From Patescibacteria group bacterium UBA2135 (lineage in GTDB: Bacteria; Patescibacteriota; Minisyncoccia; Phycocordibacterales; UBA2135), in assembly GCA_002327685.1 (NCBI GenBank), contig DCXN01000003.1, positions 6,981 through 70,980 of the forward strand: 64,000 nucleotides of DNA. The letters run 5' to 3'. This document shows, piece after piece, positions 217 to 33,876 of this stretch (position 1 is its first letter; every line of letters begins with the position of its first letter). The position numbers and the translations under genes were made by a program. Below the pieces are notes generated by a model. It was not told the DNA's origin. It was given only the letters and a program-made list of their open reading frames with translations, and did no database searches.

Positions 217-235
217 ACCCCCCCCTTTTTTTTCT

Positions 236-301
236 CCGCAAGGCCCGGCCTTACATGGGGATAACCTGTTGATAAACTACCCCGCAAGGCCGGGCCTTGC
301 G
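236..301. repeat. REP-like element, family 1 (copy 1)
   Basis: CCGCAAGGCCCGGCCTTAC-ATGGGGATAACCTGTTGATAAACTACCCC-GCAAGGCCGGGCCTTGCG: two inverted arms around the palindromic core AAGGCCCGGCCTT. About 10 copies occur in the window. Confidence 0.8.
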
Positions 302-314
302 AATCAATAAACTT

Positions 315-1893: not shown

Positions 1894-2000
1894 AAATATA
1901 ATCACTTCGCTCATTATTTTATCAATTGTACCACCATTAAAACACCTGCCAACTTGACAACCCACAAAGCTCTCCCTCCCAACACCGTCCCACCCCCCCC

Positions 2001-2063
2001 GCCGCAAGGCCCGGCCTTACATGGGGATAAGTTGTGGAAAACCTACCCCGCAAGGCCGGGCAT
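2001..2063. repeat. REP-like element, family 1 (copy 2)
   Basis: CCGCAAGGCCCGGCCTTACATGGGGATAAGTTGTGGAAAACCTACCCCGCAAGGCCGGGCATT. Confidence 0.75.
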
Positions 2064-2140
2064 TAAAGAGAAACTTACAGATTTTTCACCACCACGCAAA
2101 AGAGCCCCTCTTAACTAGAGGGGCCCTTCACACAGAACAG

Positions 2141-3357: not shown

Positions 3358-3426
3358 CCGCCGCAAGGCCCGGCCTTACATGGGGATAACCTGTGCATAA
3401 ACCACCCCGCAAGGCCGGGCCTTGCG
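3358..3426. repeat. REP-like element, family 1 (copy 3)
   Basis: CCGCCGCAAGGCCCGGCCTTACATGGGGATAACCTGTGCATAAACCACCCCGCAAGGCCGGGCCTTGCG. Confidence 0.8.
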
Positions 3427-3499
3427 TAAGCTCCTCGCATGCCACACACAAAAAGCCCCTACAAAAGGGACTTTCCGCTCAAACCACTCAAAAAAACAA

Positions 3500-6285: not shown

Positions 6286-6328
6286 ATCTCCAAACTAACC
6301 ACATCTTACCACCTTATCGCCGCGCTAT

Positions 6329-6397
6329 CGCCGCAAGGCCCGGCCTTACATGGGGATAAACTGTGGAAAACCTACCCCGCAAGGCCCGGCCTTGCGG
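6329..6397. repeat. REP-like element, family 1 (copy 4)
   Basis: CGCCGCAAGGCCCGGCCTTACATGGGGATAAACTGTGGAAAACCTACCCCGCAAGGCCCGGCCTTGCGG. Confidence 0.8.
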
Positions 6398-7210: not shown

Positions 7211-7272
7211 TACGCCCGTCACAAAACCAGCCGGCCCACACAGGGTCGGCTTTGTTTTTCACCCCCTCCCTC

Positions 7273-7341
7273 CGCCGCAAGGCCCGGCCTTACATGGGGA
7301 TAACTTGTTGATAAACTGCCCCGTAAGGCCGGGCCTTGCGG
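7273..7341. repeat. REP-like element, family 1 (copy 5)
   Basis: CCGCCGCAAGGCCCGGCCTTACATGGGGATAACTTGTTGATAAACTGCCCCGTAAGGCCGGGCCTTGCGG. Confidence 0.8.
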
Positions 7342-7400: not shown

Positions 7401-7823
7401 TCAGCCACCTGTATTCTCATCACCGTCACCTTGCGCCACAAAATGTTTCTCCGCACCACGACGTGTTACAAAAGCAAACATAAACGCGCCAACATAAAAA
7501 GAAAGAAGAAAGCCAATAATAAGCCAAAGTGGTGTTAAAGACCAAAACGAGATTTCAAAAAGGACTATCGCAAAAAGCATAAGAATGAAAATTTTGACGT
7601 GTGTATAAATCCAAGATTTTTTATGGCGAACTTGCGCCAATAGACCAAAAGCAAACGGGGTAATCAATATACCGATTACTCCAAGAGGTTCTATCGCAAA
7701 ATACATTCCGGTCATTCCGGAAGATTCTATACTTGTTACCGCCACAAAATACATTCTAGCTATCAAACCAAGACCCAAACTGCCCAACAATACCGGAAGT
7801 GTAGACCAGTTAATAATGCGCAT
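7401..7823 (-). CDS. Integral membrane protein
   Basis: 140 aa with four predicted transmembrane segments. Confidence 0.55.
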   Translation of the reverse strand: MRIINWSTLPVLLGSLGLGLIARMYFVAVTSIESSGMTGMYFAIEPLGVIGILITPFAFGLLAQVRHKKSWIYTHVKIFILMLFAIVLFEISFWSLTPLWLIIGFLLSFYVGAFMFAFVTRRGAEKHFVAQGDGDENTGG

Positions 7824-7955
7824 GATAATTTCCTTTCATATCTATTCGCATTTATTCACATTTCTGCGATAAACTCATGAGACTTATGTAACTTCTAAAA
7901 CTAAGTATCCCCAAAAACATTTTTTTGTCAACAGTCAACACACCACCCCACACCC

Positions 7956-8024
7956 CGCCGCAAGGCCCGGCCTTACATGGGGATAAGTTGTTGATAACCC
8001 ACCCCGCAAGGCCGGGCCTTGCGG
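7956..8024. repeat. REP-like element, family 1 (copy 6)
   Basis: CGCCGCAAGGCCCGGCCTTACATGGGGATAAGTTGTTGATAACCCACCCCGCAAGGCCGGGCCTTGCGG. Confidence 0.8.
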
Positions 8025-8079: not shown

Positions 8080-10323
8080 CTACGGCCCCACCCCATACCT
8101 CCAATTCAAAACACCATAATCAAGATGCGGTGGAGCCCCCGCGCCAGTTTTAAAAAACGCCCTAAAATCAGCGACGTCATTATAAGAGAAACTATTACGC
8201 ACCTTATAAATCGCAGCAAACAATCGCTCCCCCTGAATAGGATTCAAAATGTCATCATTTTGCTGAGAACTAGGGCTCGTACCCAAAGAATGCCCATTAA
8301 CAATCGTTGAACTCGCCACAACCCCCCGATATAAATCACCATACACCGTCCCAGATATACCAGAATAAACATACTTGCAAGAGCCACTCTCTGGAATATA
8401 ATATCCCCCTTCAGAAAAACTTGAAGTCTCCGACGGGCAAAAATAACCAATCGCGAGAAGCGAAACACTGTTCTGCGCGCGCGGAGTACCATTAAGCGCG
8501 CCGCCATCCGCATCCGTGCCATTCACGGTAAAAGTATTATTTGATTTCCAATTCGTAGCAAGCGCGCCGTCTACCCCAAAGCTCACCCGCTCCATAGAAA
8601 GATAGTCAGAACCAGCGCTCCCGCCACACCATCCGCCGCCACAATCAGAAAGCGCCGGCGTCTCATCAAGCGTCGTAGTAGCAAAACCACCAAGATACTG
8701 AACAAGACTCAACACCTCGCCGCCATTCCCCAGATCAGAACTGCCGCCCGATCCGCTAAACGCTACTACTAAATCTTCAACAACACTCGTAGTATTACCG
8801 TCAGTCCGCTCTATAAGATAAAATCCGCTTGACGTCGCAGTCGCAGCCCCATCCCCTAACGAAATATCAGGCGCGCCATCTTCAGCGACAAGCGAAACAT
8901 TCGCAAGGGTAATGTCATGATTTGAAGGACTAAACAACTCCACCCACTCATCCGCACTTGACGCGTCCGTTCCTCCCCAGGCAATTTCATTAATAACAAG
9001 CGGGCGCGTAACCACCTCAACAGATTGCGCAGTCGTAGTAGCGCCATTTCCAACGGCATCATAAACAGCAGCTTGTAGATTATACGAGCCATCAGCTGAA
9101 ACCGTTATCGTCCCCGACGCGTCTGTCGTCGTAGCGGTCAACACACCGTCCCGGACGAGCGCGTAATACGCTATGTCAGTTGAAGAAGAACTCCACGAAA
9201 GGTTAAGCGTCATTCCGCCTGACAAACATGTCTCTGACGAAAGAGAATATTCACATTGAAGAACCGAGAACGAGCCAAACACAGGCGCGATGGTGTCTAC
9301 CGAAATAGTTTTCGCCGACGATGTCGCCGTCATCCCCTCACTGTTGGCGGCAATAATTTGAATAGCCGTTTCCCCTTCTGGAAAATTACTCAGCACAAGC
9401 GTCCAACTTTCGTTTTCATCCGCTGTCGTAGTCGCATTATTAAAATTGTTTGAGATGACAAGCGTTGACGAAGCAGTGCCGGAAAACGTGAGCGACGTCG
9501 TCGCGGTGTCAAAAACATCATCCGCGGGAGAAATAATAATCGGCGCGGAAATGACAACAGCCGCTGACTCCTCTTCTTCTTCAGCCTCTTCCTCTTCTTC
9601 TTCCTCCGCAGACTCACTCTCTTCAGCGTCATCCTGCGGCGCCTCCGGCGCCGTACCACCACCCCCACTCCCACCACCAAACCCCGGCTGATACGGTTGC
9701 GGCTGATATGGCTCCGACTCCAACAGGTCATCACCATCAATATCCGTCAATAAATCATCAACATCCGTCGCCACCTCCTCAGACTCAACCGGAATCTCCG
9801 CAAGCGGAGATTCCCCCACAGGCACAACCACAACTTCCGGCGCAACCACATCCACATCCCCCCCAAAAACCTCCCCCACCGACGGCTCCGCAAGCGGAGC
9901 CGTCACACTCACAAGCGGCGCCTCCGGCGCCGCCACAATTGAGAAAAAGGCTTCTTTGTCAGTTTTTTTATCAAGCTCAAAATTTTTTATTCTTTCTATA
10001 ACTTGAGATAGTTGCTGTTCTTGTTTTGCTTTTTCTAAATCACTTTTCATCTCCTCCCTATCATCCGGCAAAAAATACTTACTCGCCAACTCCACATCCT
10101 CCGCCTCAAGCGCTTCAATAAAAAGCGCGAGTGTTTCTTCCGGTGTTGCGCCGCCGAAGGTGTCATTTTCATATTCCTTCTCCAAATTTTCAAAATATTC
10201 AATCGCCGCGCGCTCCTGCCGCCCCTCGGGATTCAAATACGCCACCCCAACCCAAACAAGCAAGCCAACGACAATAATCCCCAAAAACCCTAATAAAAAC
10301 CTTTTACTTGTACCATTTAACAT
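8080..10323 (-). CDS. Large membrane-anchored surface protein with a lamin-tail domain, Ig-like repeats and an acidic/Pro-rich linker
   Basis: N-terminal transmembrane segment. Glu-rich and PQPYQP repeat tract. VINEIAWGGTDASSADEWVELFSP matches a lamin-tail domain. 747 aa. Confidence 0.7.
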   Translation of the reverse strand: MLNGTSKRFLLGFLGIIVVGLLVWVGVAYLNPEGRQERAAIEYFENLEKEYENDTFGGATPEETLALFIEALEAEDVELASKYFLPDDREEMKSDLEKAKQEQQLSQVIERIKNFELDKKTDKEAFFSIVAAPEAPLVSVTAPLAEPSVGEVFGGDVDVVAPEVVVVPVGESPLAEIPVESEEVATDVDDLLTDIDGDDLLESEPYQPQPYQPGFGGGSGGGGTAPEAPQDDAEESESAEEEEEEEAEEEEESAAVVISAPIIISPADDVFDTATTSLTFSGTASSTLVISNNFNNATTTADENESWTLVLSNFPEGETAIQIIAANSEGMTATSSAKTISVDTIAPVFGSFSVLQCEYSLSSETCLSGGMTLNLSWSSSSTDIAYYALVRDGVLTATTTDASGTITVSADGSYNLQAAVYDAVGNGATTTAQSVEVVTRPLVINEIAWGGTDASSADEWVELFSPSNHDITLANVSLVAEDGAPDISLGDGAATATSSGFYLIERTDGNTTSVVEDLVVAFSGSGGSSDLGNGGEVLSLVQYLGGFATTTLDETPALSDCGGGWCGGSAGSDYLSMERVSFGVDGALATNWKSNNTFTVNGTDADGGALNGTPRAQNSVSLLAIGYFCPSETSSFSEGGYYIPESGSCKYVYSGISGTVYGDLYRGVVASSTIVNGHSLGTSPSSQQNDDILNPIQGERLFAAIYKVRNSFSYNDVADFRAFFKTGAGAPPHLDYGVLNWRYGVGP

Positions 10324-10395
10324 AAGTCCTCATATTATATAAAGCTAATAAAAAATAAACTTGACTGACAAAAAATATATACTCTAACAAGCAAA

Positions 10396-10575
10396 CGAAC
10401 GGGAAAGGTCTGACCTTGAGGAAAAAACTGTGTCGCCAGGTCTGGCCTTGAGGAGGAGCGGAGCGACGGGAGAAGACCAGACCTTGCGGTACAGTTTTTG
10501 GGAAAAGGTCGGACCTCGCGGAGTCCATTTGCCGAACTGAGGAGTTTCAGCCCGAGACTGATCCGCCTCAGGCGG
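10396..10575. repeat. Family-2 GC-rich repeat array
   Basis: Units such as GGTCTGACCTTGAGG / CCAGGTCTGGCCTTGAGGAGGAGCGGAGCGACGGGAGAAG / ACCAGACCTTGCGG / GGTCGGACCTCGCGG. The core resembles the family-1 arm (CCGCAAGGYCCGGCCTT). Confidence 0.75.
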
Positions 10576-10595
10576 AAACACAAAACAAAATGCTT

Positions 10596-10835
10596 TTATT
10601 TGAATAGCCTTAATATATCCTCCTTGGTTATAGAAGAATCGCACTTCAAAACAAATTTAGCAATATTATTCACAACCTCACTTTTTATTTTTTTATGTCG
10701 CGGTAATGGACATTTAGTACCAGTATTCTCACAAGGAATTTGATCATGTTTTTTCCCGTTTATAATTGAAAACCCCAGTGTCTCTAGGGCTTTAGTAATT
10801 TTCCTATGGGTACTTTCAAAGAAGTAGTCACTCAT
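10596..10835 (-). CDS. hicA: HicA-family toxin (YcfA-like mRNA interferase)
   Basis: KITKALETLGFSIINGKKHDQ...PLPRHKKIKSEVVNNIAK follows the HicA pattern (LeklGF...kGSHh...vPvH.k.ik.g.lk.Ilk). 79 aa. Confidence 0.5.
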   Translation of the reverse strand: MSDYFFESTHRKITKALETLGFSIINGKKHDQIPCENTGTKCPLPRHKKIKSEVVNNIAKFVLKCDSSITKEDILRLFK

Positions 10836-10838
10836 TTT

Positions 10839-11222
10839 TTAGGCAACAATTTTTTCCATAACAAAATTTCTATCCAAATATTCATTTGGTATTGTCATGC
10901 CAAATTTTTCAACAAGTTCTTGTGACGGCTGATAATGTGTTACAAATTTTCTGTAATCCTCAGGAATTCCCAAGGAAGTATGCATGGCATCGTTCACCAT
11001 TTCAATTATTTCTTTTCCAGAATTTGCTTGTGTTATACAGTTATCAATATTTCCTATTTCAGCAACATAGCCGCCATCTTTAGATGATTGTATTCTGACG
11101 TCTATGGAGTCCGGAATTTTGGAGTTAAAAGCGACGATTAACTCCGGACGAATTGGTTCTTTGGTCCTAAAAAGAAAGTCTGTAAAAGACATATTTATAT
11201 TTATACTACATAAGCAAGACAT
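10839..11222 (-). CDS. hicB: HicB-family antitoxin (UPF0150-like)
   Basis: ...SSKDGGYVAEIGNIDNCITQANSGKEIIEMVNDAMHTSL matches the HicB N-terminal fold pattern. A 4-nt gap separates it from hicA. The true start may be the internal Met at 11192. Confidence 0.5.
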   Translation of the reverse strand: MSCLCSININMSFTDFLFRTKEPIRPELIVAFNSKIPDSIDVRIQSSKDGGYVAEIGNIDNCITQANSGKEIIEMVNDAMHTSLGIPEDYRKFVTHYQPSQELVEKFGMTIPNEYLDRNFVMEKIVA

Positions 11223-11529
11223 TGCAAGAAGCCCATCTCACAAACTTTTCAGCGCACTAACTAAAAGAACACTCTCACACCAAACACAAGAAGCCCGATA
11301 ATGACAACAGCGATAAAAATAAAAACGAGATACAAGAAAACTTCTTTCACAAACGAACGCCCTTTTTTAGACTCCTTTCCTGTTAATTCTTTATCCATAT
11401 TTTTATTTTACCAAAACGATACTCCTCTTCCTACAAACTGCACTCAATTCTGAAAGCAATAAAACGTCTTGCTCTAGAGCAAATTCAGGAGTTTGCTATG
11501 AAGCTCTTTTAAAAAATTTACACTGCCCG

Positions 11530-11817
11530 TCATTCGAAAAATTCAACTTCAATATCAATAGAATTATTTTGTTCGTTAAGAGTCCCTACCATCGCTATAA
11601 TGTGACGTCCTCCAGTTACTTCATTGGCTTGATACATGACAAGCGGACCCTCAAAGCTGCGCCCCTTAGGTAACGCATCTTTAATTCTCTGCACAGCATC
11701 ATCTTTTGAAGTAGCTTGTGCCATCGCTTCCTCCATAGCTTTTTTTGTCGGTACGACAACCTCACGCTTGAATTTTTCTCGTGATGTTTCAACACCAGGT
11801 GCATCTTCTTGTGACAT
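11530..11817 (-). CDS. Hypothetical protein
   Basis: 95-aa ORF with protein-like composition. Confidence 0.4.
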   Translation of the reverse strand: MSQEDAPGVETSREKFKREVVVPTKKAMEEAMAQATSKDDAVQRIKDALPKGRSFEGPLVMYQANEVTGGRHIIAMVGTLNEQNNSIDIEVEFFE

Positions 11818-11929
11818 AAATTTATGTTTAATTATAAATATAAAGTTATATTAACACGATAAGCAAAATTTAATAAATGATAAATGATAGCCCAAAATAA
11901 GGCCAGTCACTTTTTTGCAATTATTAATC

Positions 11930-12033
11930 ACTCGTCTGCCAAATATTATTACACGCCGCGCTTTTCTGCCATCCAGCCGCCATAGCCTCCTCTTCGGCAC
12001 AAAACCACTGCTCCCCTTTCCGCGGGTCAATCC
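11930..12033 (-). pseudogene. Duplicated 3'-terminal fragment of the thermonuclease gene
   Basis: About 105 bp at ~90% identity to 12690-12795, which is the last ~35 codons plus stop of the 12684-13475 gene. Confidence 0.6.
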
Positions 12034-12037
12034 TCAC

Positions 12038-12112
12038 CCCCCCCACTTCAAAACACACCAAATCACCTCCTCCCCAAAAAAACACTATAAAATACCCCGC
12101 ATTGGGGGGTTT
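12038..12112. repeat. C/A-rich ~75-bp intergenic repeat (copy 2)
   Basis: CAAAACACACCAAATCACC...AAAATACCCCGCATTGGGGGGTTTG. Hairpin plus T-rich tail. Confidence 0.6.
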
Positions 12113-12239
12113 GTTTATTCTTTCAAATCATATCCTTGACATATAGCATGTATCGTGCTAGGATTACCGTAGAAAGCCTACATCATGGTAGTTCAAACGA
12201 CAAATATATTGTCCTAATCTGAAACGAAAGGAGTCCATA

Positions 12240-12485
12240 GTGTTGAAAGAGAGAGACGACGAAATCATTAGCAAACACGTTCGCGTTAAGGCATGTGAAG
12301 CACTCGAGCACGGCGATAACGTTGGATGTGTTTGTCATCTTATCGGCAAGGTGGTTAAGATCAAAAAGCGCTACAACGCACCACTCGCTGGCACACCCTC
12401 ATATCACATCAAGGGTATGAATCAGCGCGTCCGGCGTAGTGAAGTCACGCTGCTGAGAGACCAGTCAACACCCTTGAGTAAGTAG
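12240..12485 (+). CDS. Hypothetical small protein (GTG start)
   Basis: 81 aa. AAAGGAG RBS upstream. A hairpin GAGAATCC-GTC-GGATTCTC follows the stop. Confidence 0.4.
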   Translation: MLKERDDEIISKHVRVKACEALEHGDNVGCVCHLIGKVVKIKKRYNAPLAGTPSYHIKGMNQRVRRSEVTLLRDQSTPLSK

Positions 12486-12683
12486 CCCTCGAGAATCCGT
12501 CGGATTCTCAATCGAACTCTCAAGAAGTAACCAGGCGCACGACCTTCGGGTACGGCGTCTTTTATTTTGGAAAATAGGGACAGTTTAGAAAATAAGGTCA
12601 CCCACTTCCCCAACAAACCCCAAAATCACCCCTCCGCGTTACTTAACAAAAAATCAAATCCAAAATCATAAATCATAAATCCC

Positions 12684-13475
12684 TCACCCTTTCGTCTGCC
12701 AAATATTATTACACGCCGCGCTTTTCTGCCATCCAGCCGCCATAGCTTCTTTTTCCGTACAGAACCACTGCTCCCCTTTCCGCGGGTCAATTTTCACACG
12801 TTTGTAATTCGGACATCCCGGAAAGAAATAGTCCTTTTCATAACGCTTATTAATATTCCCCTTTATCACACACTCATCACTAAACGGATCACTCGCTTGC
12901 TCCCGCTCCGCGCTCGCTGACGCTTTTTCATAATCACACGCGCCCCACATTCCCAATTCTTCTTCCTCGGCTTCGCTTTGAGTCGCTTGCAGTTGCGATA
13001 AATATCGCCTGTTGGGTTTCACATAAACGCTCTCCGCATAACCACCACGCACAAGTTCTTTGTTCACAAACACATCATCAATTTCCGGATTCTCGCTACG
13101 CAAAACAACATACCGAAGTAATCTATCATAATTATCACTCGCAGTTTGATCCTTCTCTAAAAGAATCTCTTGTCCTAACACCAATCCAGTCAACTCTTTT
13201 TTAGCTTCCTCACCAAAACACTCCGCGCTCTCCGGAGCATCAATTCCTAACAAACGCACACGAATGTTGTTTTCAATAATTAAAGTATCACCGTCTACGA
13301 CTTGCTCCACAAGATGCAGTCGCTCTTCAAAATTAGCCCCATATTTCCCATAATTTTTAACAACCGTATACCCGCCATAACCCCCAGCCGCCATCACAAA
13401 CGCCAACACGCCCATAATCACCTTGTGCGAAAAAATATTCTTAACCATACCCTTAATTATGCACCATATACTCAC
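12684..13475 (-). CDS. Thermonuclease (staphylococcal nuclease-like, SNc) family protein with an N-terminal membrane anchor and a C-terminal Cys-containing domain
   Basis: VVDGDTLIIENNIRVRLLGIDAPES...DNYDRLLRYVVL...VNKELVRGGYAE is the SNase fold signature. The C-terminus carries ...GEQWFCTEKEAMAAGWQKS. Confidence 0.7.
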   Translation of the reverse strand: MSIWCIIKGMVKNIFSHKVIMGVLAFVMAAGGYGGYTVVKNYGKYGANFEERLHLVEQVVDGDTLIIENNIRVRLLGIDAPESAECFGEEAKKELTGLVLGQEILLEKDQTASDNYDRLLRYVVLRSENPEIDDVFVNKELVRGGYAESVYVKPNRRYLSQLQATQSEAEEEELGMWGACDYEKASASAEREQASDPFSDECVIKGNINKRYEKDYFFPGCPNYKRVKIDPRKGEQWFCTEKEAMAAGWQKSAACNNIWQTKG

Positions 13476-13535
13476 AAAAAAATATCATAAAAAAGCCAGC
13501 TGTTTGGGGCAGAACAACTGGCAAACCATTTTTGA

Positions 13536-13736
13536 TTAAAAAAACAGGTAGAACACTAGGCCGGCAAAGACCATGCCCTCCAATATATAGGTGAATTCGT
13601 GTAATGCCCTCTGAGCCCACCCGTGCGTCTCGTAGTAACTCCGCTTATAGTCAGTCAGGTGGTCAGAAACCATTATAACCCCCATGCTGACCACAGTAAA
13701 AAAGGTAAATATTACGACAATCTTGACGTCTACCAT
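13536..13736 (-). CDS. Small membrane protein
   Basis: 66 aa, two hydrophobic segments. Confidence 0.3.
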   Translation of the reverse strand: MVDVKIVVIFTFFTVVSMGVIMVSDHLTDYKRSYYETHGWAQRALHEFTYILEGMVFAGLVFYLFF

Positions 13737-13875
13737 AACGCCCTCCTTTTCTCGGTTGAACTTTAGGATTACTGGAAAACGAGTCTAAATACATTATACA
13801 CAACGATAAGTATCTGTCAAGTAAAAGCCGCACTTGCATTGCAAAAGTGCGGCTTCATAATTACATGACCCTCGT

Positions 13876-14061
13876 TCAGTCGCTCTCTTTCGTAATGAGC
13901 CATTTCGAGAGAAGATAAGCTGCGACGAGAGCACCGACAGCCACAATGGTCATGTTGATTTTGTCGGTGACCTGGTACGCGGCTAAAACGACACCGCTTG
14001 CGCCCAGCCATACAATAACGAGTGCGATAAGTTCGGTCGGTGAAAAACTTCTCATTGACAT
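13876..14061 (-). CDS. Small membrane protein
   Basis: 61 aa, two hydrophobic segments. An overlapping alternative frame (13817-14086) looks less protein-like. Confidence 0.3.
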   Translation of the reverse strand: MSMRSFSPTELIALVIVWLGASGVVLAAYQVTDKINMTIVAVGALVAAYLLSKWLITKESD

Positions 14062-14129
14062 TGATTGTACTCCTCATAGCTATCAAATAACCTCAATCAT
14101 ATTATCATACTTAAAAGATTACGTCAACC

Positions 14130-14199
14130 CCGCCGCAAGGCCCGGCCTTACATGGGGATAAGCTGTTGATAAACTACTCCATAAGGCCGGGCCTTGCGG
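14130..14199. repeat. REP-like element, family 1 (copy 7)
   Basis: CCGCCGCAAGGCCCGGCCTTACATGGGGATAAGCTGTTGATAAACTACTCCATAAGGCCGGGCCTTGCGG. Confidence 0.8.
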
Positions 14200-14285
14200 A
14201 CAAATGAATTTTTACCAAAACAAAAAAGACCGCCCCCTCGCATACGAAGCGAGGGTTTGGTCTCTCGTTTCGCCGAAGTGGCGGT

Positions 14286-14708
14286 TTAAGGGAACGTCCC
14301 ACAACACTCATAGCAATAGAAGGTGAAACCAACGTGGCTCGGGCCAACGCTACCTCTCGTGTTGCAATGCGGACAGACGGGATACTCCCTCGCCAGCTCC
14401 ATGTCGGTGGCAGTTTCAAATCCCGCTTTGTTGACTCTCCTAAGGAAGATGTTGATACCCACCCTCAGAGAATCTGACAGCGGTTCTACGAAGACATCAT
14501 CCTCCTTTCTAATCAACTGTTCTAGAACACCGATCTGCTGAAACTGGGTCATCGCTTCAACTTGTTCCTTAGTCGTACCGTCGGGAAAAGTTATCCCTTC
14601 TTGAAACACACAATTGATGAGACGGGCAAGCTCATCCTCATCTTGTAAAAGTTTGAGGTTTTGGGCACTCGCCCAATCTCTGATCTTTTGCGCCATTGCG
14701 TCGTCCAT
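14286..14708 (-). CDS. Hypothetical protein with a C-terminal zinc-ribbon-like Cys cluster
   Basis: 140 aa. ...CPHCNTRGS...FYCYECCGTFP. Confidence 0.45.
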   Translation of the reverse strand: MDDAMAQKIRDWASAQNLKLLQDEDELARLINCVFQEGITFPDGTTKEQVEAMTQFQQIGVLEQLIRKEDDVFVEPLSDSLRVGINIFLRRVNKAGFETATDMELAREYPVCPHCNTRGSVGPSHVGFTFYCYECCGTFP

Positions 14709-14809
14709 CGTTACCTCGCTTTCTTTACAATAAATAGGTAATTGACTAAATTGTTTATTCTAAAGCAATTATACTCTATCTAATCCAACATGTCAAGCTC
14801 GCTAAACAT

Positions 14810-14838
14810 TTGACAAATAGATTTAGTTATGACACACT
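14810..14838 (+). promoter_or_regulatory. Promoter motif paralogous to 6721-6749
   Basis: TTGACAAATAGATTTAGTTATGACACACT, 23/29 identical to the 6721 copy. Precedes the 14884 gene. Confidence 0.5.
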
Positions 14839-14883
14839 TTAGATAGACAAAATCGACAAACCCACCTTTTCGGGAGAATCATA

Positions 14884-15177
14884 ATGCCGAAAGAAGCAAC
14901 AACGCGCGAAAGACAAAAATCTTGGGGCTTGGTCATCTTCATGTTAGGATCCGCCGTCTGGATCTTTGTCTATGGAGGAATGTTATACGGAGAAACGCAA
15001 TTCGCGGAATCGGACTACATGACAATAGTTGGAATCATAACCGCAGGCGCACTTCCTCTCGCTATAGCTATCACCATTATCTTCCGGCTTGGAGTTGAGT
15101 ACGGGAGATCGTACGCCGAACGCGCACAGGGGCATAGAGATATCACCACCTGCCACTTCATGAATGATACGAACTAA
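14884..15177 (+). CDS. Small membrane protein
   Basis: 97 aa, two transmembrane segments, GGAG-type RBS. Confidence 0.5.
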   Translation: MPKEATTRERQKSWGLVIFMLGSAVWIFVYGGMLYGETQFAESDYMTIVGIITAGALPLAIAITIIFRLGVEYGRSYAERAQGHRDITTCHFMNDTN

Positions 15178-15268
15178 CCACGCCCATCACAAGCCTCGCC
15201 GACCTCGCCAAGAGGTCGGTTTTTCATTTCCCCCTCTGGCTTCTTTCAAAAAAAATATGGGCGAGATT

Positions 15269-15784
15269 TTACCCTCGCCCATTTATTAGCCTCGCCGCTT
15301 CATCTCCACAATAATGATCACTGTATAAGAATTCAATTATCTTATCACGCTCCCAGTCGGCAATGTCAGGAATCTCATCAAGTCCTAAGGAAAAAGCTGC
15401 CGCAGAAAGATGAATCCTGTCTCTAAGAGGACTCTCAGCAACACTTTCTATCTTGTGACCAGACTCGTGACCAAACCAACCACTCTCGTTTATATATTCA
15501 TAATCGTAATACATAGCAAGCAAGATAGACAATCCGCATTTTGCTTTCTCTTCATAGCCATCCGTTAGCCAAGAGAACACTTTTTCTAGAATACCACTCC
15601 GAAGACTTCTACCACATGAATGCCCTCCAGAATCATAACCACGACATACTTCTATGATGCAATAAAGTGCGATGTCTTTTTTAGAGCCTTCCCTTTCTAG
15701 TAATTTCGCAACTTCTTCTTCAAAATATTCCATTTGTAGTGGAGGAATATTTTTATCCTTGCAAAGAACTTTTAAAGACCTCAT
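15269..15784 (-). CDS. Hypothetical protein
   Basis: 171-aa ORF with no recognised motif. Confidence 0.45.
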   Translation of the reverse strand: MRSLKVLCKDKNIPPLQMEYFEEEVAKLLEREGSKKDIALYCIIEVCRGYDSGGHSCGRSLRSGILEKVFSWLTDGYEEKAKCGLSILLAMYYDYEYINESGWFGHESGHKIESVAESPLRDRIHLSAAAFSLGLDEIPDIADWERDKIIEFLYSDHYCGDEAARLINGRG

Positions 15785-15863
15785 CTCAACCTCCTTAAAT
15801 AGCGCTACTTTCTATCACAGATACTACATATATCTTAGCGAGAGTAAAGAATTAAATTAAACC

Positions 15864-15884
15864 ACGCAGGGCCGGGCCTTGCGG
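15864..15884. repeat. REP-like half-element (family-1 arm) downstream of the RAYT gene
   Basis: ACGCAGGGCCGGGCCTTGCGGG. Confidence 0.6.
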
Positions 15885-15890
15885 GAATCT

Positions 15891-16046
15891 ACGGAATTCT
15901 TTCAGAAGACGTTGGTTGATATGTACGAGCTTCTTTTTGCTCCACGTCAATATATCCGGCAACTAGAGCGCCGACAACGCCAATAAGTACAATGAGCACA
16001 AAACGAGTTAAGAATTTGAGAAATGTTGGAGTAAATACTTCCCTCA
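15891..16046 (-). CDS. Possible 52-aa membrane peptide
   Basis: MREVFTPTFLKFLTRFVLIVLIGVVGALVAGYIDVEQKEARTYQPTSSERIP from a hand translation of the minus strand. Not in the ORF track (under 60 aa). Confidence 0.2.
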
Positions 16047-16054
16047 TCACATTA

Positions 16055-16891
16055 TTATACCACAGTCACCCGTTGTTCTTGTTCTTGTTCTTGTGTTTGT
16101 TGCTGTGATTGTGTGCTTTCAATGTCTTCAGCACCTTCAGCATCTTTAACGTCTTCAACAATCTCAATCCGCGCATCTGCCTGCATATCCACCCTCCCCT
16201 CCTCACCCTCCAATTCAAGAATCTCTTTACTATACGTCAACCACGCGTTGATAAATTCATCAAATTCAGCAAAATCCTCAAAATATTCAGGGAAAAATTC
16301 TTTAGCGTTACTGACAATAGCGCCCTCCGGACGTACTTTCCCGATGAAATCCAAATAGCTTGAATAGTCATAATGCAAAAGCTGTGTGCGAGCTTCTTGC
16401 AGATTTTGAATACCTTTTTCTTTCCATGTTGAGTCAACTAGTTTCACCGGATTTAAATGAATATATGCAAAAAGATATCTCAAGTAATTATCGTGGATGG
16501 CGCGTTTTGACTTAAATCTGCCCTCAAACAACGTACCAGAACGTTCATATTTCGTATTGAAGTACATTGAATACGCCGTCATCAATTTTTGCATGAATCG
16601 TGAAATACCGTTTGGCTGTATTTGTCTTATGAGAATGTGAAAATGATTGGGCATCAAGCAATACGCGCCAATCGCCACAAGAGGTTTTCGTCGTGAAAAC
16701 ATTTTAAGCAATTCAGAAAAAGAAAGCGTTCTTAGAACTTCCATCCTAATTTCACTTTCACCATTACACACATACAATAAACGCATAAAACGATCATAAT
16801 CTTCCCTTTTGAGAAAAATATCACGCTTATCAACACCTCTATTATAGAGATGATAAAATTCATTTTCTGCAAATTGTTCTTTACGAGCCAT
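16055..16891 (-). CDS. REP-associated tyrosine transposase (RAYT; IS200/IS605-like Y1 HUH transposase)
   Basis: YHLYNRGVDKRDIF...AYCLMPNHFHILI (the HUH motif) ...GTLFEGRFKS...YLRYLFAYIHLNPVK (the catalytic Tyr). REP-like elements lie on both sides. Confidence 0.75.
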   Translation of the reverse strand: MARKEQFAENEFYHLYNRGVDKRDIFLKREDYDRFMRLLYVCNGESEIRMEVLRTLSFSELLKMFSRRKPLVAIGAYCLMPNHFHILIRQIQPNGISRFMQKLMTAYSMYFNTKYERSGTLFEGRFKSKRAIHDNYLRYLFAYIHLNPVKLVDSTWKEKGIQNLQEARTQLLHYDYSSYLDFIGKVRPEGAIVSNAKEFFPEYFEDFAEFDEFINAWLTYSKEILELEGEEGRVDMQADARIEIVEDVKDAEGAEDIESTQSQQQTQEQEQEQRVTVV

Positions 16892-16957
16892 ATGTTTGAA
16901 AATTACGCTTAATTACATCATTGTGTTTAATTACATGATTCTATCTTACAAGCACCA

Positions 16958-17031
16958 CCCCCGCAAGGCCCGGCCTTGCAAGTTATCCACAGGTTATCCC
17001 CCAAAAACCTCTCTCAAGGCCGGGCCTTGCA
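16958..17031. repeat. REP-like element, family 1, inverted variant (copy 9)
   Basis: CCCCGCAAGGCCCGGCCTTGCAAGTTATCCACAGGTTATCCCC...CAAGGCCGGGCCTTGC. The central part is the reverse complement of GGGGATAACCTGTGGATAA. Confidence 0.7.
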
Positions 17032-17116
17032 GAAAATCATCCACTCAAAAACCGCCTCACTTATTAGCAAGGCGGTTTTTAATGATTTGCTTTATCTTCG
17101 TATTAGCTTCTTTTCT

Positions 17117-20909: not shown

Positions 20910-20950
20910 CCCCGCAAGGCCCGGCCTTACATGGGGATAACCTGTGGATA
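20910..20950. repeat. REP-like element, family 1 (copy 10, left arm plus centre only)
   Basis: CCCCGCAAGGCCCGGCCTTACATGGGGATAACCTGTGGATAG. Confidence 0.65.
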
Positions 20951-26879: not shown

Positions 26880-27034
26880 CCCCCCTCACTCGAAAAATTA
26901 TTGACGACGTAGAGCGAGGTAAATGGACGGGAAAGGTCTGACCTTGAGGAGGAGCGAAGCGACGGGAGAAGGTCGGACCTTGCGGAGTCCATTTGCCGAG
27001 CCGAGGAGTTAGTAACTTTTCGAGTGAGGGGGTG
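26880..27034. mobile_element. Non-coding MITE-like element with the same inverted repeats as the GIY-YIG element, carrying a family-2 repeat core
   Basis: Inverted repeats CCCCCTCACTCGAAAA (26881-26896) and TTTTCGAGTGAGGGGG (27017-27032) enclose GACGGGAAAGGTCTGACCTTGAGGAGGAGCGAAGCGACGGGAGAAGGTCGGACCTTGCGGAGTCCATTTGCCGAGCCGAGGAG. Confidence 0.55.
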
Positions 27035-27072: not shown

Positions 27073-29355
27073 ATGACAAGAAAATACAAAAAAAGACGCG
27101 GGAAATCTTCTTTCCTGCCCGCATTAAAAGAAGAGACGCGGCGCTTCATATTCTCAATCCTCTCGTTTGTTATCGCGATCTTTTTTCTGCTTGCATACGC
27201 TAATCAAGCTGGAATTGTAGGAGAATCAATACGAAACATATTCAACAAATTCTTCGGTGTCGGATATTTCCTCTTTCCCGCCTTTCTCGTAGGAGCTGGT
27301 ATAGTATTTCTTTCAATAAAACGCACACATATTGCCGCGGCAACTTTTTTAGGCGGTCTTTTATTTCTCACATCCGGCCTTGCGCTAATCAGCACATTCA
27401 ATAGTGAGGCTGGAGGCATTGTGGGAGCGATACTCTCTTCTCCTTTTGTCGCACTCTTTGATACATTTGCCACAAAAGTGATCCTTATCGCTTTACTATT
27501 CGTCTCGTTACTAATCTTATTTGACGCAACCCCTACAAAGATTATTTCCTCTCTCTCCGAGCTGGCAAACTGGTTAAAAAATTTGGTGAGCAGAAAACAG
27601 GAATCACTAGATTCTGATGAATACGAGGAAGATGAAGACGGTGAAGAGGGTGAATATGATGATGAGGAGTATGATGAAGAAGACGAGATAGAGGCACAAG
27701 ACGAATCGGAAGGAGAGACTACGCACAAAGAAGACGCCGAGAAACGTACTGCGCCTTTTGCGCAAACACTATCGCAAACCAAAGAAAACATTCTTTCATT
27801 CGTACAGGCTACCTCAAAAGAGTACACTCCTCCCCCACTATCGCTTTTTGAAACAGACAAAGGCAAACCTGATGTTGGAGACATAAAAGCAAATGCGAAT
27901 ATTATCAAAAGAACGCTTCAACATTTTGGTATAAATGTTGAAATGGACGAGGTGTCTATCGGTCCATCAATTACACGTTACGCGTTAAAACCGGCACAAG
28001 GAGTAAAACTTTCCCGCATTATAGGACTTCAAAACGATCTATCGCTCGCGCTTGCGGCACACCCTCTTCGCATTGAAGCACCAATACCTGGAAGATCTTT
28101 AGTCGGTATTGAAATACCAAATAATAAAAAAACTATCGTTGGTCTTGGTTCACTTCTAAAATCGCCTGAAATAAAGAAAACATCTGCTCCACTTGCGTTT
28201 CCTATCGGACGCAGTATTACAGGAAATCCAATTGTCGGAAACTTAAACAAAATGCCGCACCTGCTAATCGCCGGAGCAACTGGTGCGGGAAAATCGGTTT
28301 CCCTGCACACGATTATTACATCGTTACTCCACCGTAATGCACCTACAAACCTTAGGATTATCATGGTAGACCCTAAGCGAGTAGAATTGACACTCTATAA
28401 CAATATCCCACATCTTCTGACACCAGTCATCACCGATCCTAAAAAGGCAATTTTAGCACTCAAGTGGGCCGGCAAAGAAATGGATCGCCGATATGATGTT
28501 TTAGAAGCAGAATCAGTACGCGATATCGCTTCATATCATAAAAATGTTGTTGAACCTGCTTATGCAGAACAAGCGCAGAACAAGCGCGGAACAAGCGCGG
28601 CGGAACAAGAACAAGAACAGGAAGTAAATCCACTACCAGAAACAATGCCGTATATTGTTGTCATCATTGATGAGCTAGCGGATATTATGAATCTATATCC
28701 ACGAGAACTTGAGTCAGCAATTGTACGCATTGCGCAGATGGCGCGCGCTGTAGGTATTCATCTCATTCTCTCAACACAACGACCACAGGTAAACATCATC
28801 ACCGGACTAATTAAGGCAAACATTCCAACACGCATCGCGCTTCAAGTCGCTTCACAAACCGACTCAAGAACAATTCTTGACATGGGTGGTGCCGAGAAAC
28901 TCTTAGGTTCCGGTGACCTACTCTATCTTTCAAGTGAGATGTCAAAACCGGTACGTCTGCAATCTGCCTATATCGGAGAATCAGAAATAAAGAAGATAAC
29001 TAAATTTCTCGCAAAGCAAAACAAAGACGGTAAATTTGATGTTGACGTACACATTAACTCTCCCAAGAAAGACGTATTATTTGAAGCAAACCTTGAAGAA
29101 AATCTGGAGGACAAAGAAGGCACCGAGGAAGATGAATTGTATGAAGATGCCCGGGAAATCGTCATTCAAAGCAAAAAAGCATCAACAACGTACCTTCAAC
29201 GAAAATTAAGAATTGGATACGCTCGCGCGGCGAGCATCATGGACATGCTTGAAGAGCGCGATGTTGTAGGGCCCGCGGAAGGATCCAAGCAAAGAGAGGT
29301 ATTAATATCCGCTGGTGAGGAGACAGATTATGATGATGAAAACGAAAGTATTTAG
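27073..29355 (+). CDS. ftsK: DNA translocase FtsK/SpoIIIE
   Basis: N-terminal transmembrane segments, an acidic linker (EYEEDEDGEEGEYDDEEYDEEDE), Walker A GATGAGKSV, and a C-terminal gamma winged-helix TTYLQRKLRIGYARAASIMDMLEERDVVGP. Confidence 0.9.
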   Translation: MTRKYKKRRGKSSFLPALKEETRRFIFSILSFVIAIFFLLAYANQAGIVGESIRNIFNKFFGVGYFLFPAFLVGAGIVFLSIKRTHIAAATFLGGLLFLTSGLALISTFNSEAGGIVGAILSSPFVALFDTFATKVILIALLFVSLLILFDATPTKIISSLSELANWLKNLVSRKQESLDSDEYEEDEDGEEGEYDDEEYDEEDEIEAQDESEGETTHKEDAEKRTAPFAQTLSQTKENILSFVQATSKEYTPPPLSLFETDKGKPDVGDIKANANIIKRTLQHFGINVEMDEVSIGPSITRYALKPAQGVKLSRIIGLQNDLSLALAAHPLRIEAPIPGRSLVGIEIPNNKKTIVGLGSLLKSPEIKKTSAPLAFPIGRSITGNPIVGNLNKMPHLLIAGATGAGKSVSLHTIITSLLHRNAPTNLRIIMVDPKRVELTLYNNIPHLLTPVITDPKKAILALKWAGKEMDRRYDVLEAESVRDIASYHKNVVEPAYAEQAQNKRGTSAAEQEQEQEVNPLPETMPYIVVIIDELADIMNLYPRELESAIVRIAQMARAVGIHLILSTQRPQVNIITGLIKANIPTRIALQVASQTDSRTILDMGGAEKLLGSGDLLYLSSEMSKPVRLQSAYIGESEIKKITKFLAKQNKDGKFDVDVHINSPKKDVLFEANLEENLEDKEGTEEDELYEDAREIVIQSKKASTTYLQRKLRIGYARAASIMDMLEERDVVGPAEGSKQREVLISAGEETDYDDENESI

Positions 29356-29432
29356 TATCTGGTATTTAGTATTTAGTATACGATTAAATTTTTTTATACT
29401 AGATACTAGATACTAAATACTTGATACCCATG
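29341..29432. repeat. AT-rich inverted-repeat region built from ATACTAAATAC / GTATTTAGTAT units
   Basis: GTATTTAGTAT x3 followed by ATACTAGATACTAGATACTAAATAC. The same unit family occurs at 33781-33875. Confidence 0.5.
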
Positions 29433-33875: not shown

Positions 33876-33876
33876 G

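Follow-up and report, generated by a model that had tools for sequence, protein, structure and literature searches.

Y1 nucleases and their palindromic repeats

The systems closest to the locus discussed here pair a Y1 HUH nuclease – often called a REP-associated tyrosine transposase, or RAYT – with short palindromic repeats. The canonical REP is defined by a 5′ GT[AG]G tag at the foot of its hairpin, and the TnpAY1 subclass 2.1 (Bertels group 1) has been reported to have neither REPs nor REP-like hairpins (PMC6006769). Members of this subclass are tabulated with the HuH motif NH[YF]H or NHVH, the Tyr motif Y[IV]HLNP or YIELNP, an ‘SS’ tail and a length of about 238 aa; those of subclass 2.1.2 possess a Bac_DnaA_C-like C-terminal domain, and Quentin et al. 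state explicitly that no DnaA consensus box was found in subclass 2.1 (PMC6006769). The TIRYT genes of so-called TIRtrons are flanked by inverted repeats, some of which are self-complementary and some of which form modest dispersed families, as dimers or clusters (PMC6006769, PMC3733652). Work on REP/RAYT systems has been confined almost entirely to Proteobacteria, Cyanobacteria and Bacteroidetes, and the published surveys that we consulted mention neither Patescibacteria nor Parcubacteria.

The locus described here lies in a 64-kb stretch of DNA (64,000 nucleotides, hereafter ‘the window’) from the Patescibacteria group bacterium UBA2135. We conclude, with moderate confidence, that it is a REPtron/TIRtron-like system, inherited vertically and with a DnaA box in its repeats, and that its nuclease apparently services about ten copies of a hairpin repeat. 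The kind of system is recognisable; the combination of features is new to description.

A RAYT-like HUH nuclease

The nuclease gene (16055..16891, minus strand) encodes a protein of 278 aa containing the motifs PNHFHILI and AYIHLNPVK, which the original prediction had assigned to the Y1 type. This assignment was borne out: the Pfam profile Y1_Tnp (PF01797) matches with 33.1 bits (cut-off 23, E 6.6e-8) and also matches 18 of 18 aligned homologues. The HUH motif is formed by H83-F84-H85, the catalytic Tyr143 lies within YIHLNP (143–148), which represents the class-2 Tyr motif Y-x-x-x-N-P, and the YSSY tail is conserved. Invariant among 62 homologues are H83, F84, H85, Y143, N147 and P148; so, among the homologues, are S177 and S178 of the YSSY tail. 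The C-terminal region is conserved and family-specific, and residues 226–278 make up a low-complexity extension that most homologues lack.

The AlphaFold model (mean pLDDT 84.7) displays the TnpA fold, with the HUH metal-binding motif and, on the helix that follows, one catalytic Tyr, and the closest solved structure is that of the E. coli REP-associated transposase. A sequence search against solved structures returned ISDra2 and E. coli TnpA-REP with non-significant E values of 0.09–0.5, so that kinship to the solved RAYT/TnpA chains is seen by fold only. Among the profiles suggested for checking the prediction, Y1_Tnp scores above its cut-off. NCBIfam REP_Tyr_transpos (NF047646), the equivalog model for canonical RAYTs (subclasses 2.2, 2.4, 2.5, 2.7 and 2.8), gives 39.8 bits, below its own cut-off of 80.

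In its motifs – NHFH, YIHLNP and YSSY – the nuclease fits the entries for TnpAY1 subclass 2.1, with which the family also shares a length of about 220–240 aa; the placement is made by motifs and not by a tree. It differs from subclass 2.1 and TIRYT proteins in that Bac_DnaA_C, HTH_23 and HTH_28 domains are not detectable in it, and neither is any fold or sequence like DnaA domain IV. The invariant flanking motif is GGGGATAA here, in place of their GGGGWSAS, to which it fits at 6 of 8 positions. A further difference from subclass 2.1 is that tight, perfect hairpins flank genes of the type found in the window as a rule; and the link to DnaA is on the DNA side here, in the form of a consensus box, but on the protein side in subclass 2.1.2. 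With TIRtrons, the locus shares a repeat-flanked gene and the dispersal of the repeat as doublets.

A weak match at 7731–7874 (plus strand) may represent a decayed second Y1 gene, although at 4.7 bits it is too weak to claim.

A large family in Patescibacteria, bracketed by palindromes

Such a system had been thought unexpected in a CPR genome, an expectation that the family overturns. The nuclease has more than 7,700 homologues, nearly all of them from Patescibacteria where the source names the organism; they are 217–280 aa long, about 45–55% identical between genomes and nearly always present in one copy per locus. Of 80 Patescibacteria loci, 67 have a GC-rich palindrome no more than 130 nt upstream of the gene, and in these 67 it recurs at or just past the stop codon (50 loci), in frame at +153..+175 (16 loci) and as further dispersed copies (10 loci). 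A core of the form [A/T/G]AGG-N5-CCT[T/A/C] is kept in 69 of the 80 loci, while the palindrome itself differs between genomes – in the locus L015, for example, it is TCCAAGGTTCGACCTTGGA – and the palindrome class tracks protein similarity, the observed difference being reached in 0 of 1000 permutations. As a rule, the genes of this nuclease family are bracketed by a palindrome specific to their genome.

The in-frame site is fixed at codons ~52–62, upstream of the HUH motif, with a semi-conserved peptide, x-E/Q-G-R-T/S-F/L-x-E; the gene in the window has lost this palindrome and reads LRTL (CTA AGA ACG CTT). In-frame REPs are also found in tnpA-REP genes of subclass 2.4 (Quentin 2018, PMC6006769), where, as in the homologues considered here, the coding sequence holds its own palindrome and is not disrupted by it; there, however, the insertion falls between HuH and Y, and not upstream of HUH.

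An active, selfish insertion sequence of the IS200/IS605 type, with the 70-nt elements described below as its MITE-like (PATE-like) derivatives, would account for the Y1_Tnp domain, for the compact palindrome–gene–palindrome unit (about 720–760 bp in many homologues, reminiscent of IS200 with its end hairpins) and for the occurrence of two paralogues (L054 and L082) in one MAG. It is nonetheless an improbable explanation, given that the Tyr motif is the class-2 Y-x-x-x-N-P (YIHLNP) and not the Y-x-x-x-Q of IS200, and that no gene called next to the nuclease looks like a tnpB partner. The nuclease gene, the only Y1 gene in the 64-kb window, is single copy across these 64 kb and 20 kb of flanks; the identical protein occurs on 16 contigs, with the gene in the same position in all 16, and the locus is syntenic in a relative (L010) at ~86% nucleotide identity. 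Homologues from different genomes are, moreover, about 45–55% rather than nearly 100% identical, and the family is nearly absent from viral and plasmid collections: 2.9 million viral contigs yielded only one distant relative, and the plasmid relatives are only 25–33% identical. The single copy, the fixed and syntenic position and the scarcity in viruses and plasmids also point to vertical inheritance of the gene.

The hairpin element and its dispersal

The ORF had been described as bracketed by a half REP and an inverted variant REP, and both were found. Upstream of the gene lies a hairpin doublet (16958..17032, minus strand; profile match 16961–17032), a longer-spacer variant that is inverted with respect to the dispersed copies, with arms at 16963–16979 and 17014–17030 and its end 66 nt upstream of the ATG. 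Downstream, a single arm, or half element (15861..15884, plus strand), borders a 6-kb indel. This half arm is missing in L010, so that bracketing in this particular genome rests mainly on the upstream doublet and on the family-wide pattern.

The palindrome of the gene flanks is the same as that of the repeat dispersed through intergenic gaps, as the original prediction had it: a search for the arm GCAAGGCCCGGCCTTGC that allowed at most 3 mismatches returned 37 strand-matches versus 0.13 expected, a number reached in 0 of 100 shuffles. A profile census of the window with nhmmer agreed with the predicted count of about ten copies and with their positions, except that the copy placed at 20910 turned out to be a truncated half (20912..20950, plus strand) consisting of the left arm and GGGGATAACCTGTGGATA only. 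Seven copies are full, at ~70 nt, and identically oriented. The dispersed doublets, all on the plus strand, are those at 233..302 (a full 70-nt copy of what we call family A), 1999..2066 (with a degenerate right arm, TTTTCCACA in the loop and an orthologous copy in L010), 3358..3427 (between the rplL terminator and the following promoter, with TTATGCACA in the loop and a 91% identical orthologous copy in L010), 6328..6397 (again with TTTTCCACA in the loop), 7272..7341 (between the terminators of convergent genes), 7955..8024 (with an orthologous copy in L010) and 14130..14199 (within the 6-kb segment missing from L010). Of the ten copies, six – and not eight, as had been counted – fall within the first 8.1 kb, and the same census found none between 21 kb and 64 kb. 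This repeat-free right part of the window carries another, different family of hairpin doublets (family B), which have the same arm core as family A and wholly lack the DnaA box.

Beyond the window, where ~10 kb of contig sequence was covered, an additional copy lies ~450 nt past the left end (L092). An exact 27-mer of the element was also found on five metagenome contigs, four of which are regions outside the window holding ~9 further copies; the family is therefore dispersed beyond the window. A scan of a species-representative genome collection for the exact 27-mer gave no match.

As predicted, the element consists of two inverted arms around a GGGG-N19-CCCC centre; the arms are 46 nt apart from start to start. 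The palindrome of this genome is GCAAGGCC-S-GGCCTTGC, and the arms are perfect self-complementary 17–21-mers which, in the form CCGCAAGGCC-S-GGCCTTGCGG, have neither GTAG nor GTGG at the foot. The proposed check for a tetranucleotide guide accordingly came out negative, GT[AG]G being absent beside the hairpin. In single-stranded form, the element folds as one long hairpin (−25 to −28 kcal/mol, z about −7). The C/G pair at the arm centre is broken in about 5 copies, so that neither the long hairpin nor two small hairpins appear to be favoured. The nuclease probably recognises the single arm, given that single palindromes flank the gene in most homologues.

The elements follow a consistent layout: gene, intrinsic terminator, element, next promoter. 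We rejected the idea that the element is itself an intrinsic terminator, because it has no T-tract and is placed after separate terminator hairpins. Rfam gave no matches in the window, which indicates that the element belongs to no known RNA family, and a tRNA search found no genes there. The orientation of the elements relative to GC skew, examined as a sign of lagging-strand targeting, is consistent in five contigs, but not in two contigs with weak skew.

Similarities to REPtrons and REPINs

What does this arrangement resemble? The E. coli REPtron (TnpA-REP, PDB 4ER8, subclass 2.2) likewise combines an HUH motif and Y-x-x-x-N-P with a gene that lies beside its own palindromes and is single copy, as the gene of the window is across 64 kb and its flanks, and its repeats are intergenic, downstream of genes and often in inverted doublets. 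The nuclease of the window is, however, only 12–13% identical to E. coli TnpA-REP and has about 60 extra conserved C-terminal residues, while its repeats lack a GT[AG]G tag and have perfect self-complementary arms and a DnaA box in the spacer.

The REPINs of Pseudomonas and Enterobacteria (PMC3116915) share the anatomy – two inverted REP units with a short spacer, forming one long hairpin – as well as intergenic dispersal, long persistence at orthologous sites and, probably, the association with a single-copy, vertically inherited RAYT. They differ in belonging with another RAYT group and in numbering hundreds of copies, versus the tens seen here; in our case, furthermore, the spacer carries a conserved, predicted protein-binding motif, and L010 shows no empty sites.

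The description ‘classic REP/RAYT’ therefore has to be given up: the score of 39.8 bits against a cut-off of 80, the missing GT[AG]G tag and motifs that fit the REP-less class all speak against it. The broader REP/RAYT interpretation is supported in part, in that we find a Y1 HUH enzyme whose nearest structure is an E. coli RAYT, a palindrome shared between the gene flanks and the dispersed repeats, and the anatomy of REPINs.

A DnaA box at the centre of the element

One feature absent from the original prediction is that a DnaA-box module forms the middle of the element. In the gene-proximal doublet, the tandem module TTATCCACA-GG-TTATCCCCC occupies 16983..17002 (plus strand), with a perfect box at 16983–16991, and the extended motif GAGTTATCCACAG equals the E. 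coli oriC box R4 at 13 of 13 positions. The 22 nt AAGTTATCCACAGGTTATCCCC of this module are identical in L010 (22/22), whereas the rest of the spacer has diverged. The loop of the doublet, like the DNA beside the gene-proximal palindrome, carries a predicted DnaA box of the high-affinity type, to which DnaA may bind.

Two box-like 9-mers, 11 nt apart, are found in every aligned copy. Of 23 aligned copies (two of them truncated), 15 fit the DnaA-box consensus TTWTNCACA, next to an invariant TTATCCCC, and 6 read TTATCAACA, which points to drift of the DnaA box in dispersed copies; apart from the gene-proximal copy, no more than a minority of the dispersed ones retain a perfect box. Across the 80 loci, TTATCCACA occurs at 0.44 per kb in gene flanks versus 0.066 per kb overall (binomial p = 1.7e-8), and an unbiased count of 9-mers in the flanks ranks it as the most recurrent, tied with a word from one palindrome class. 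The box is present in 12–24 of the 80 loci (15–30%), and about 70% have none within 150 nt. A second genome (L025) contains at least seven dispersed palindrome-plus-box modules, with a different palindrome.

Could the 9-mer be the recognition or cleavage sequence of the nuclease itself, its identity with a DnaA box being a matter of coincidence or mimicry? The nonanucleotide in the origin loop of CRESS-virus Reps and the cleavage sites beside IS608 hairpins would be precedents. The 9-mer is indeed found 2–13 nt away from the foot of the palindrome, or else within the loop of the doublet, it is preserved where hairpin stems differ – the behaviour of a sequence read by a conserved active site – and the nuclease has its conserved, family-specific C-terminal region. 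We still consider this a poor bet: being present in only 15–30% of loci, the 9-mer is not essential for catalysis, the match extends to all 13 positions of R4, the nuclease has no DnaA-domain-IV-like fold or sequence, and tandem boxes at about 11-nt spacing, which recur, are typical of DnaA arrays and would have no role in HUH cleavage.

Chromosomal clusters of DnaA boxes outside oriC include datA and DARS in E. coli, and clusters in B. subtilis. Like the boxes described here, those in such clusters are consensus boxes, often in tandem, intergenic and away from a visible origin, but they are unique loci and not copies of a hairpin repeat tied to an HUH nuclease. Host-factor sites within palindromic repeats also have a counterpart in E. 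coli, where some BIME spacers hold IHF sites. The box as a sign of oriC or of a dnaA/dnaN neighbourhood was rejected, as GC skew keeps its sign across the window and, in the ten cases considered, the genes downstream encode surface proteins or unknown proteins with no relation to either.

Conservation in a relative, and past mobility

Comparison with L010 bears on whether the elements are mobile. Orthologous copies are 78–91% identical, versus 36–63% for the adjacent 100 nt; the elements are as conserved as coding DNA, unlike their flanks. Every comparable site in L010 is occupied, none having been found empty, and we found no target-site duplications at the elements. The latter finding led us to reject a DDE-type MITE. 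That the elements were mobile in the past is something we infer.

These observations have an alternative explanation, namely that the host selects for the 70-nt elements as cis elements, immobile at present, which serve as DnaA-binding or titration sites or as intergenic insulators between terminator and promoter; the Y1 protein would then be a domesticated housekeeping enzyme that processes hairpins, for instance at replication forks, without transposing. In favour of this are the presence of copies at orthologous sites in a diverged relative, the contrast between elements and flanks in conservation, the finding that paralogous and orthologous copies are equally close to the consensus, the uniform placement between terminator and promoter, the paired box-like 9-mers in every copy, and the high conservation (about 45–55% identity) of a protein family with nearly always one copy per locus. 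We think it unlikely all the same: a perfect box is the exception among dispersed copies, family B doublets share the arm core but do without the box, some 70% of the related loci lack a box within 150 nt, and multiple near-identical copies would still need a process that generates them.

A possible mechanism, and its implications

How, then, might a vertically inherited REPtron/TIRtron-like system with box-bearing repeats operate? Its nuclease would be a single-copy, RAYT-like Y1 HUH enzyme acting on single-stranded DNA, where it most likely recognises a short hairpin built on the core AAGG-N5-CCTT. If it acts as E. coli TnpA-REP and the TnpA proteins of IS608 and ISDra2 do, it would bind the hairpin once extruded, and nearby single-stranded DNA could be cleaved and rejoined through Tyr143 and the metal site at H83/H85. 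Such cleavage and rejoining would explain how the repeats spread and why they are homogeneous, the palindrome having presumably spread, as an inverted, REPIN-like doublet of ~70 nt, to at least ten intergenic sites in the window and to other contigs. The DnaA box may serve as an auxiliary site for a host factor. With DnaA bound next to the palindrome, the reaction could be tied to the onset of replication, or melting of the duplex for hairpin formation could be made easier. Against a role of DnaA, the box is unpaired in the loop once the hairpin has formed, and DnaA domain IV would not bind it in that state.

A bolder version, which we regard as possible but doubtful, is that a Patescibacteria-wide, domesticated Y1 HUH nuclease partners with DnaA and copies hairpin-plus-box cassettes around the chromosome, the R4-type box allowing DnaA to melt the duplex or to synchronise the reaction with the start of replication. 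Were this partnership real, the repeats would be mobile binding sites for DnaA and could titrate the initiator or shift its distribution in very small genomes, and the fusion of a DnaA-domain-IV-like HTH to the nuclease in other phyla (subclass 2.1.2) would find an explanation. If DnaA does bind the elements, the spread of the repeats would change where DnaA binds across genomes of about 1 Mb. The R4-type box that recurs beside the hairpin connects an HUH nuclease family with the replication initiator concretely and testably, at the level of sequence; the only earlier hint of such a link was the DnaA-like domain in distant relatives.

More generally, the locus extends REP/RAYT biology into the CPR, where the motif class described as REP-less has a very large branch: a gene tightly bracketed by, and often interrupted in frame by, a genome-specific hairpin, which has multiplied in some genomes, that of the window among them. 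The hundreds of protein and hairpin pairs provide a comparative system for how Y1 nucleases read hairpins. In the window, a 53-aa ORF with a hydrophobic stretch (15889..16050, minus strand), whose membership in the nuclease system is uncertain, lies between the nuclease gene and the half arm and is conserved at the DNA level in L010.

The Y1 nuclease and its family

The Y1 gene of the window (16055..16891, minus strand) has the form the original prediction gave it: a 278-aa ORF containing PNHFHILI and AYIHLNPVK, with an isolated arm of the repeat on one side (15861-15884) and an inverted variant on the other (16961-17032). Its product exceeds the cut-off of the Pfam Y1_Tnp profile (33.1 bits; cut-off 23) but stays below that of the NCBIfam equivalog REP_Tyr_transpos (39.8 bits; cut-off 80), which bears out its prediction as a Y1 transposase but not as a member of the REP-associated equivalog. 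Against a profile of 62 homologues, solved TnpA chains reach at best E 0.09-0.5. In this profile, H83, F84, H85, Y143, N147 and P148 are invariant, and the modelled protein has a RAYT-like fold with its predicted catalytic set intact. The Tyr helix is followed by about 60 more conserved residues, W156 to W217, including an invariant Y-x-x-S-S, and residues 226-278 form an acidic, low-confidence tail that most homologues lack. This tail (window 16055-16216; 53 residues, also Gln-rich, with pLDDT <50 from residue 254) is shorter in P0003, a homologue 80% identical to the window protein; it looks like read-through beyond an ancestral stop, at the position of the homologues' downstream palindrome.

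An identical protein is recorded as 'hypothetical protein CL630_01455 [bacterium]' in the Tara Oceans MAG GCA_002688065.1, and all 16 contigs carrying it have it at the same position. Homologues of the protein number more than 7,700, mostly of 217-280 aa and about 45-66% identity, and their hosts – where the source gives the organism – are nearly always Patescibacteria (among them Parcubacteria groups and Roizmanbacteria). As 2.9 million viral contigs contained only one, distant, relative and plasmid relatives show only 25-33% identity, we regard this as a CPR-wide chromosomal family; the gene is no oddity of this genome, although such a system had been thought unexpected in it.

The hairpin elements of the window

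The element – a doublet of two inverted arms, about 70 nt long – has the consensus CCGCCGCAAGGCCCGGCCTTAC-AT-GGGG-ATAACCTGTTGATAAACTA-CCCC-GCAAGGCCGGGCCTTGCGG. Its arm GCAAGGCCCGGCCTTGC, with up to three mismatches, gives 37 strand-matches in the window, against 0.13 expected from shuffling. A profile made from the full copies finds seven of these, all in the same orientation (starts 233, 1999, 3358, 6328, 7272, 7955 and 14130), a truncated copy (20912-20950), the isolated arm and the inverted variant, which has a longer spacer and lies 66 nt upstream of the Y1 ATG. It finds none from 21 to 64 kb; a further copy lies about 450 nt beyond the left end of the window. The initial sequence description was accurate overall, except that six rather than eight of ten copies fall within the first 8.1 kb.

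As single-stranded DNA, either strand of the element is predicted to fold into a single long hairpin (-25 to -28 kcal/mol, z about -7), and the arms are individually self-complementary too. A T-tract is absent from the elements themselves, and no target-site duplications were seen at the copies. Window genes lie mainly on the minus strand, where the usual order is gene, small intrinsic terminator, element and, 3-47 nt further on, the next promoter-like site; copy 3358, for instance, follows rplL, and copy 7272 sits between convergent terminators.

Between copies 7272-7341 and 7955-8024, the segment 7731-7874 (plus strand) weakly resembles the family's Tyr-motif region (DNFLSYLFAFIH vs DNYLRYLFAYIH; tblastn E 0.001, window only; profile 4.7 bits) and overlaps an ORF called on the opposite strand (7401-7823). 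It could be the relic of a second Y1 gene between two elements, or chance; no second Y1 gene was found in the window.

Genes and palindromes across Patescibacteria

In 80 loci from species-representative Patescibacteria genomes, words repeated at least three times per locus are concentrated in the 400-nt gene flanks. In 67 of the 80, the 130 nt preceding the start include a perfect GC-rich palindrome, typically 12-50 nt from the start; it recurs at -35 to +30 nt of the stop codon in 50 of these 67 (more often inverted than direct) and more than 300 nt away in 10. Its sequence differs by genome (TCCAAGGTTCGACCTTGGA, TACAAGGTTCAACCTTGT, CTAGGCAAGACCTAG, AGGAAGGCCCGGCCTTCC and others) around a core, [A/T/G]AGG-N5-CCT[T/A/C], common to 69 of the 80 loci. 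Palindrome class follows protein similarity, the observed difference being reached in none of 1000 permutations, a correlation that shared ancestry alone could explain. Judged from sequence, protein and hairpin co-vary throughout the family, as would be expected were every protein to recognise a hairpin of its own, and this pattern is the strongest argument that the window gene and the repeats – a cognate hairpin present next to the gene and in many intergenic places – belong together. In one MAG with two Y1 paralogues (JBBTYD01, contigs 7 and 3; loci L054 and L082), the flanking palindromes are related yet distinct (CTAGGCCTTGCCTAG vs GCGTTAGGCCTTGCCTAACGC).

The palindrome also occurs inside the gene, at +153..+175 (codons ~52-62), as a strict match in at least 16 of the 80 loci; about 32 have a perfect stem of at least 6 bp in this stretch, and stems reach 15 bp. 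The palindrome keeps the frame (encoding peptides such as LQGRTLEE and FNEGRTFIE) and matches the flanking copies exactly in several genomes; such third copies include L015 1122-1140, L023 7098-7117, L036 1220-1242, L039 10157-10183 and L076 ~10157-10190, among others. The window gene has lost the palindrome and kept a peptide remnant, LRTLSFSEL (about 16711-16740, minus strand). In-frame REPs inside tnpA-REP are known for subclass 2.4 (PMC6006769), albeit at another position in the gene.

A DnaA-type box beside the hairpin

The gene-proximal doublet reads, at 16980-17002, arm-AAG-TTATCCACA-GG-TTATCCCCC. Of 23 element copies, drawn from the window and from related contigs, 15 match the DnaA-box consensus TTWTNCACA, and all 23 keep the adjoining GGGGATAA (TTATCCCC on the other strand). 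In L010, a close syntenic relative, 22 nt of the gene-proximal module (AAGTTATCCACAGGTTATCCCC) are unchanged, while the following 14 spacer nt have largely diverged. The 200-nt gene flanks of the 80 loci contain 14 perfect copies of TTATCCACA, a density of 0.44 per kb compared with 0.066 overall (binomial p = 1.7e-8). Of 75 perfect boxes, 26 have a GC palindrome no more than 35 nt away, as against 11% of random windows. An unbiased 9-mer count in the flanks puts TTATCCACA joint first with a word of one palindrome class, and its overlapping neighbours read GAGTTATCCACAG, a 13-mer that is also the sequence of oriC box R4 in E. coli (read from NC_000913.3). Twelve of the loci have a perfect box, and 24 do if one mismatch is allowed; in the window's dispersed copies the box drifts, to TTATCAACA in six.

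The box comes second, 2-13 nt after the palindrome, and a further box-like word follows about 11 nt beyond it in L012 and L087 and 13 nt beyond in L025. In the latter, which is a Parcubacteria genome from groundwater, at least seven dispersed palindrome-box modules are built on a different palindrome, AAGGACGGTCCTT; some of them are ~80-nt doublets whose spacer holds a convergent pair of boxes. Two such doublets (10924-11000 and 11478-11558) stand in opposite orientations either side of ~480 nt, both reading palindrome, TTATCCACA, 17 nt with TTATCGACA, TGTGGATAA, palindrome.

A box of the DnaA type is conserved beside the hairpin, and looks like an accessory site, kept best at the gene-proximal copy. 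An oriC or dnaA neighbourhood was rejected, the genes beside box-bearing loci being unrelated (TPR, PKD/LTD, LCAT, unknown), and no DnaA-domain-IV-like part was found in the Y1 protein. That the 9-mer is a cleavage signal of the nuclease itself would suit its place next to the palindrome, but we think this improbable given the identity with R4. On the reading we favour, the nuclease would bind a single-arm hairpin extruded on single-stranded DNA, Tyr143 would cut and rejoin DNA nearby, and this reaction would have produced the element copies; DnaA would bind the box and either assist in opening the DNA beside the palindrome or couple the reaction to initiation.

Persistence in a close relative

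L010 shares 82-92% coding identity with the window (Y1 gene, 86%) and has an element at every comparable site – 1999, 3358, 6328, 7272, 7955 and the gene-proximal one – with no empty site among them. Orthologous elements are 78-91% identical, the adjacent 100 nt only 36-63%, and window paralogues (mean 88.7%) are as similar as orthologues (80-91%); the copies are therefore old, and held near consensus by selection or homogenisation. This fits REPIN-type long persistence and, equally well, purely host-selected DnaA-binding or insulator sites beside a domesticated nuclease; we consider the host-function reading rather unlikely.

The isolated arm is the right border of a 6-kb segment missing from L010 (window 9829-15898 vs L010 10168-10412). 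Besides element copy 14130, that segment holds a gene with an SNase domain and six small ORFs. Also missing from L010 (window 2603-3345 vs L010 4458-4503) is a ClpX-zinc-finger-only gene of 162 aa (2776-3264, minus strand) with promoter- and terminator-like sites of its own; the edge of this segment adjoins copy 3358.

Relationship to known systems

The Y-x-x-x-N-P motif places the window protein, on sequence grounds, in class 2 of Quentin et al. 2018 (PMC6006769). It agrees with what their table lists for subclass 2.1 in length, in its NHFH and YIHLNP motifs and in the SS motif of the tail – a motif comparison, not a phylogeny. Subclass 2.1 is Bertels group 1 (PMC6006769) and probably corresponds to the TIRYTs that Di Nocera described in 2013 (PMC3733652). 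It has no REP-like hairpins reported near the gene, a C-terminal HTH that is partly Bac_DnaA_C-like, and flanking repeats, GGGGWSAS, described as unlike DnaA boxes (PMC6006769); the CPR branch departs from it on each point: its hairpins are tight, an HTH is not detectable, and its DNA carries a consensus DnaA box. A canonical RAYT is rejected because the REP_Tyr_transpos score is too low and the repeats lack the GT[AG]G tag; the original prediction had proposed comparing the element flanks for a guide tetranucleotide of the RAYT type. IS200 fails on Tyr motif and copy number, and an active IS200-like element with MITEs, which the Y1_Tnp match might bring to mind, is accordingly very doubtful. 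Given these differences and failures, we file the system as a variant of the REPtron/TIRtron kind. Full-text literature searches of incomplete coverage found neither RAYT or REPIN together with Patescibacteria nor, except for the domain remark in PMC6006769, DnaA boxes with REP-type repeats.

Other repeats in the window

A second hairpin doublet, family B (CCAGGTCTGGCCTT-GAGGAGGAGCGRAGCGACGGGA-AAGGCCGGACCTTGCGG), occupies the part of the window avoided by the first (26910-27000, 30955-31045, 47862-47948 and 47963-48053, with a partial copy at 51478-51565) and occurs also in L007 (1659-1735). Its outer stems vary by copy yet remain complementary (AACTGT/ACAGTT vs AAATGGAC/GTCCATTT); the arm core, AAGG-N5-CCTT, is that of the first family, without a DnaA box. 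A perfect 39-nt inverted repeat of ATACTAAAT-like units (29341-29379 / 33840-33878) brackets 4.4 kb, with akin short tandem units at 29396-29422 and 33776-33802. A tandem array at 45722-45903 comprises about 13 units of 14 nt (TTCGTTGTAGGTCG-like), and a 63-nt unit occurs six times at 31295-31735, presumably as a coding repeat.
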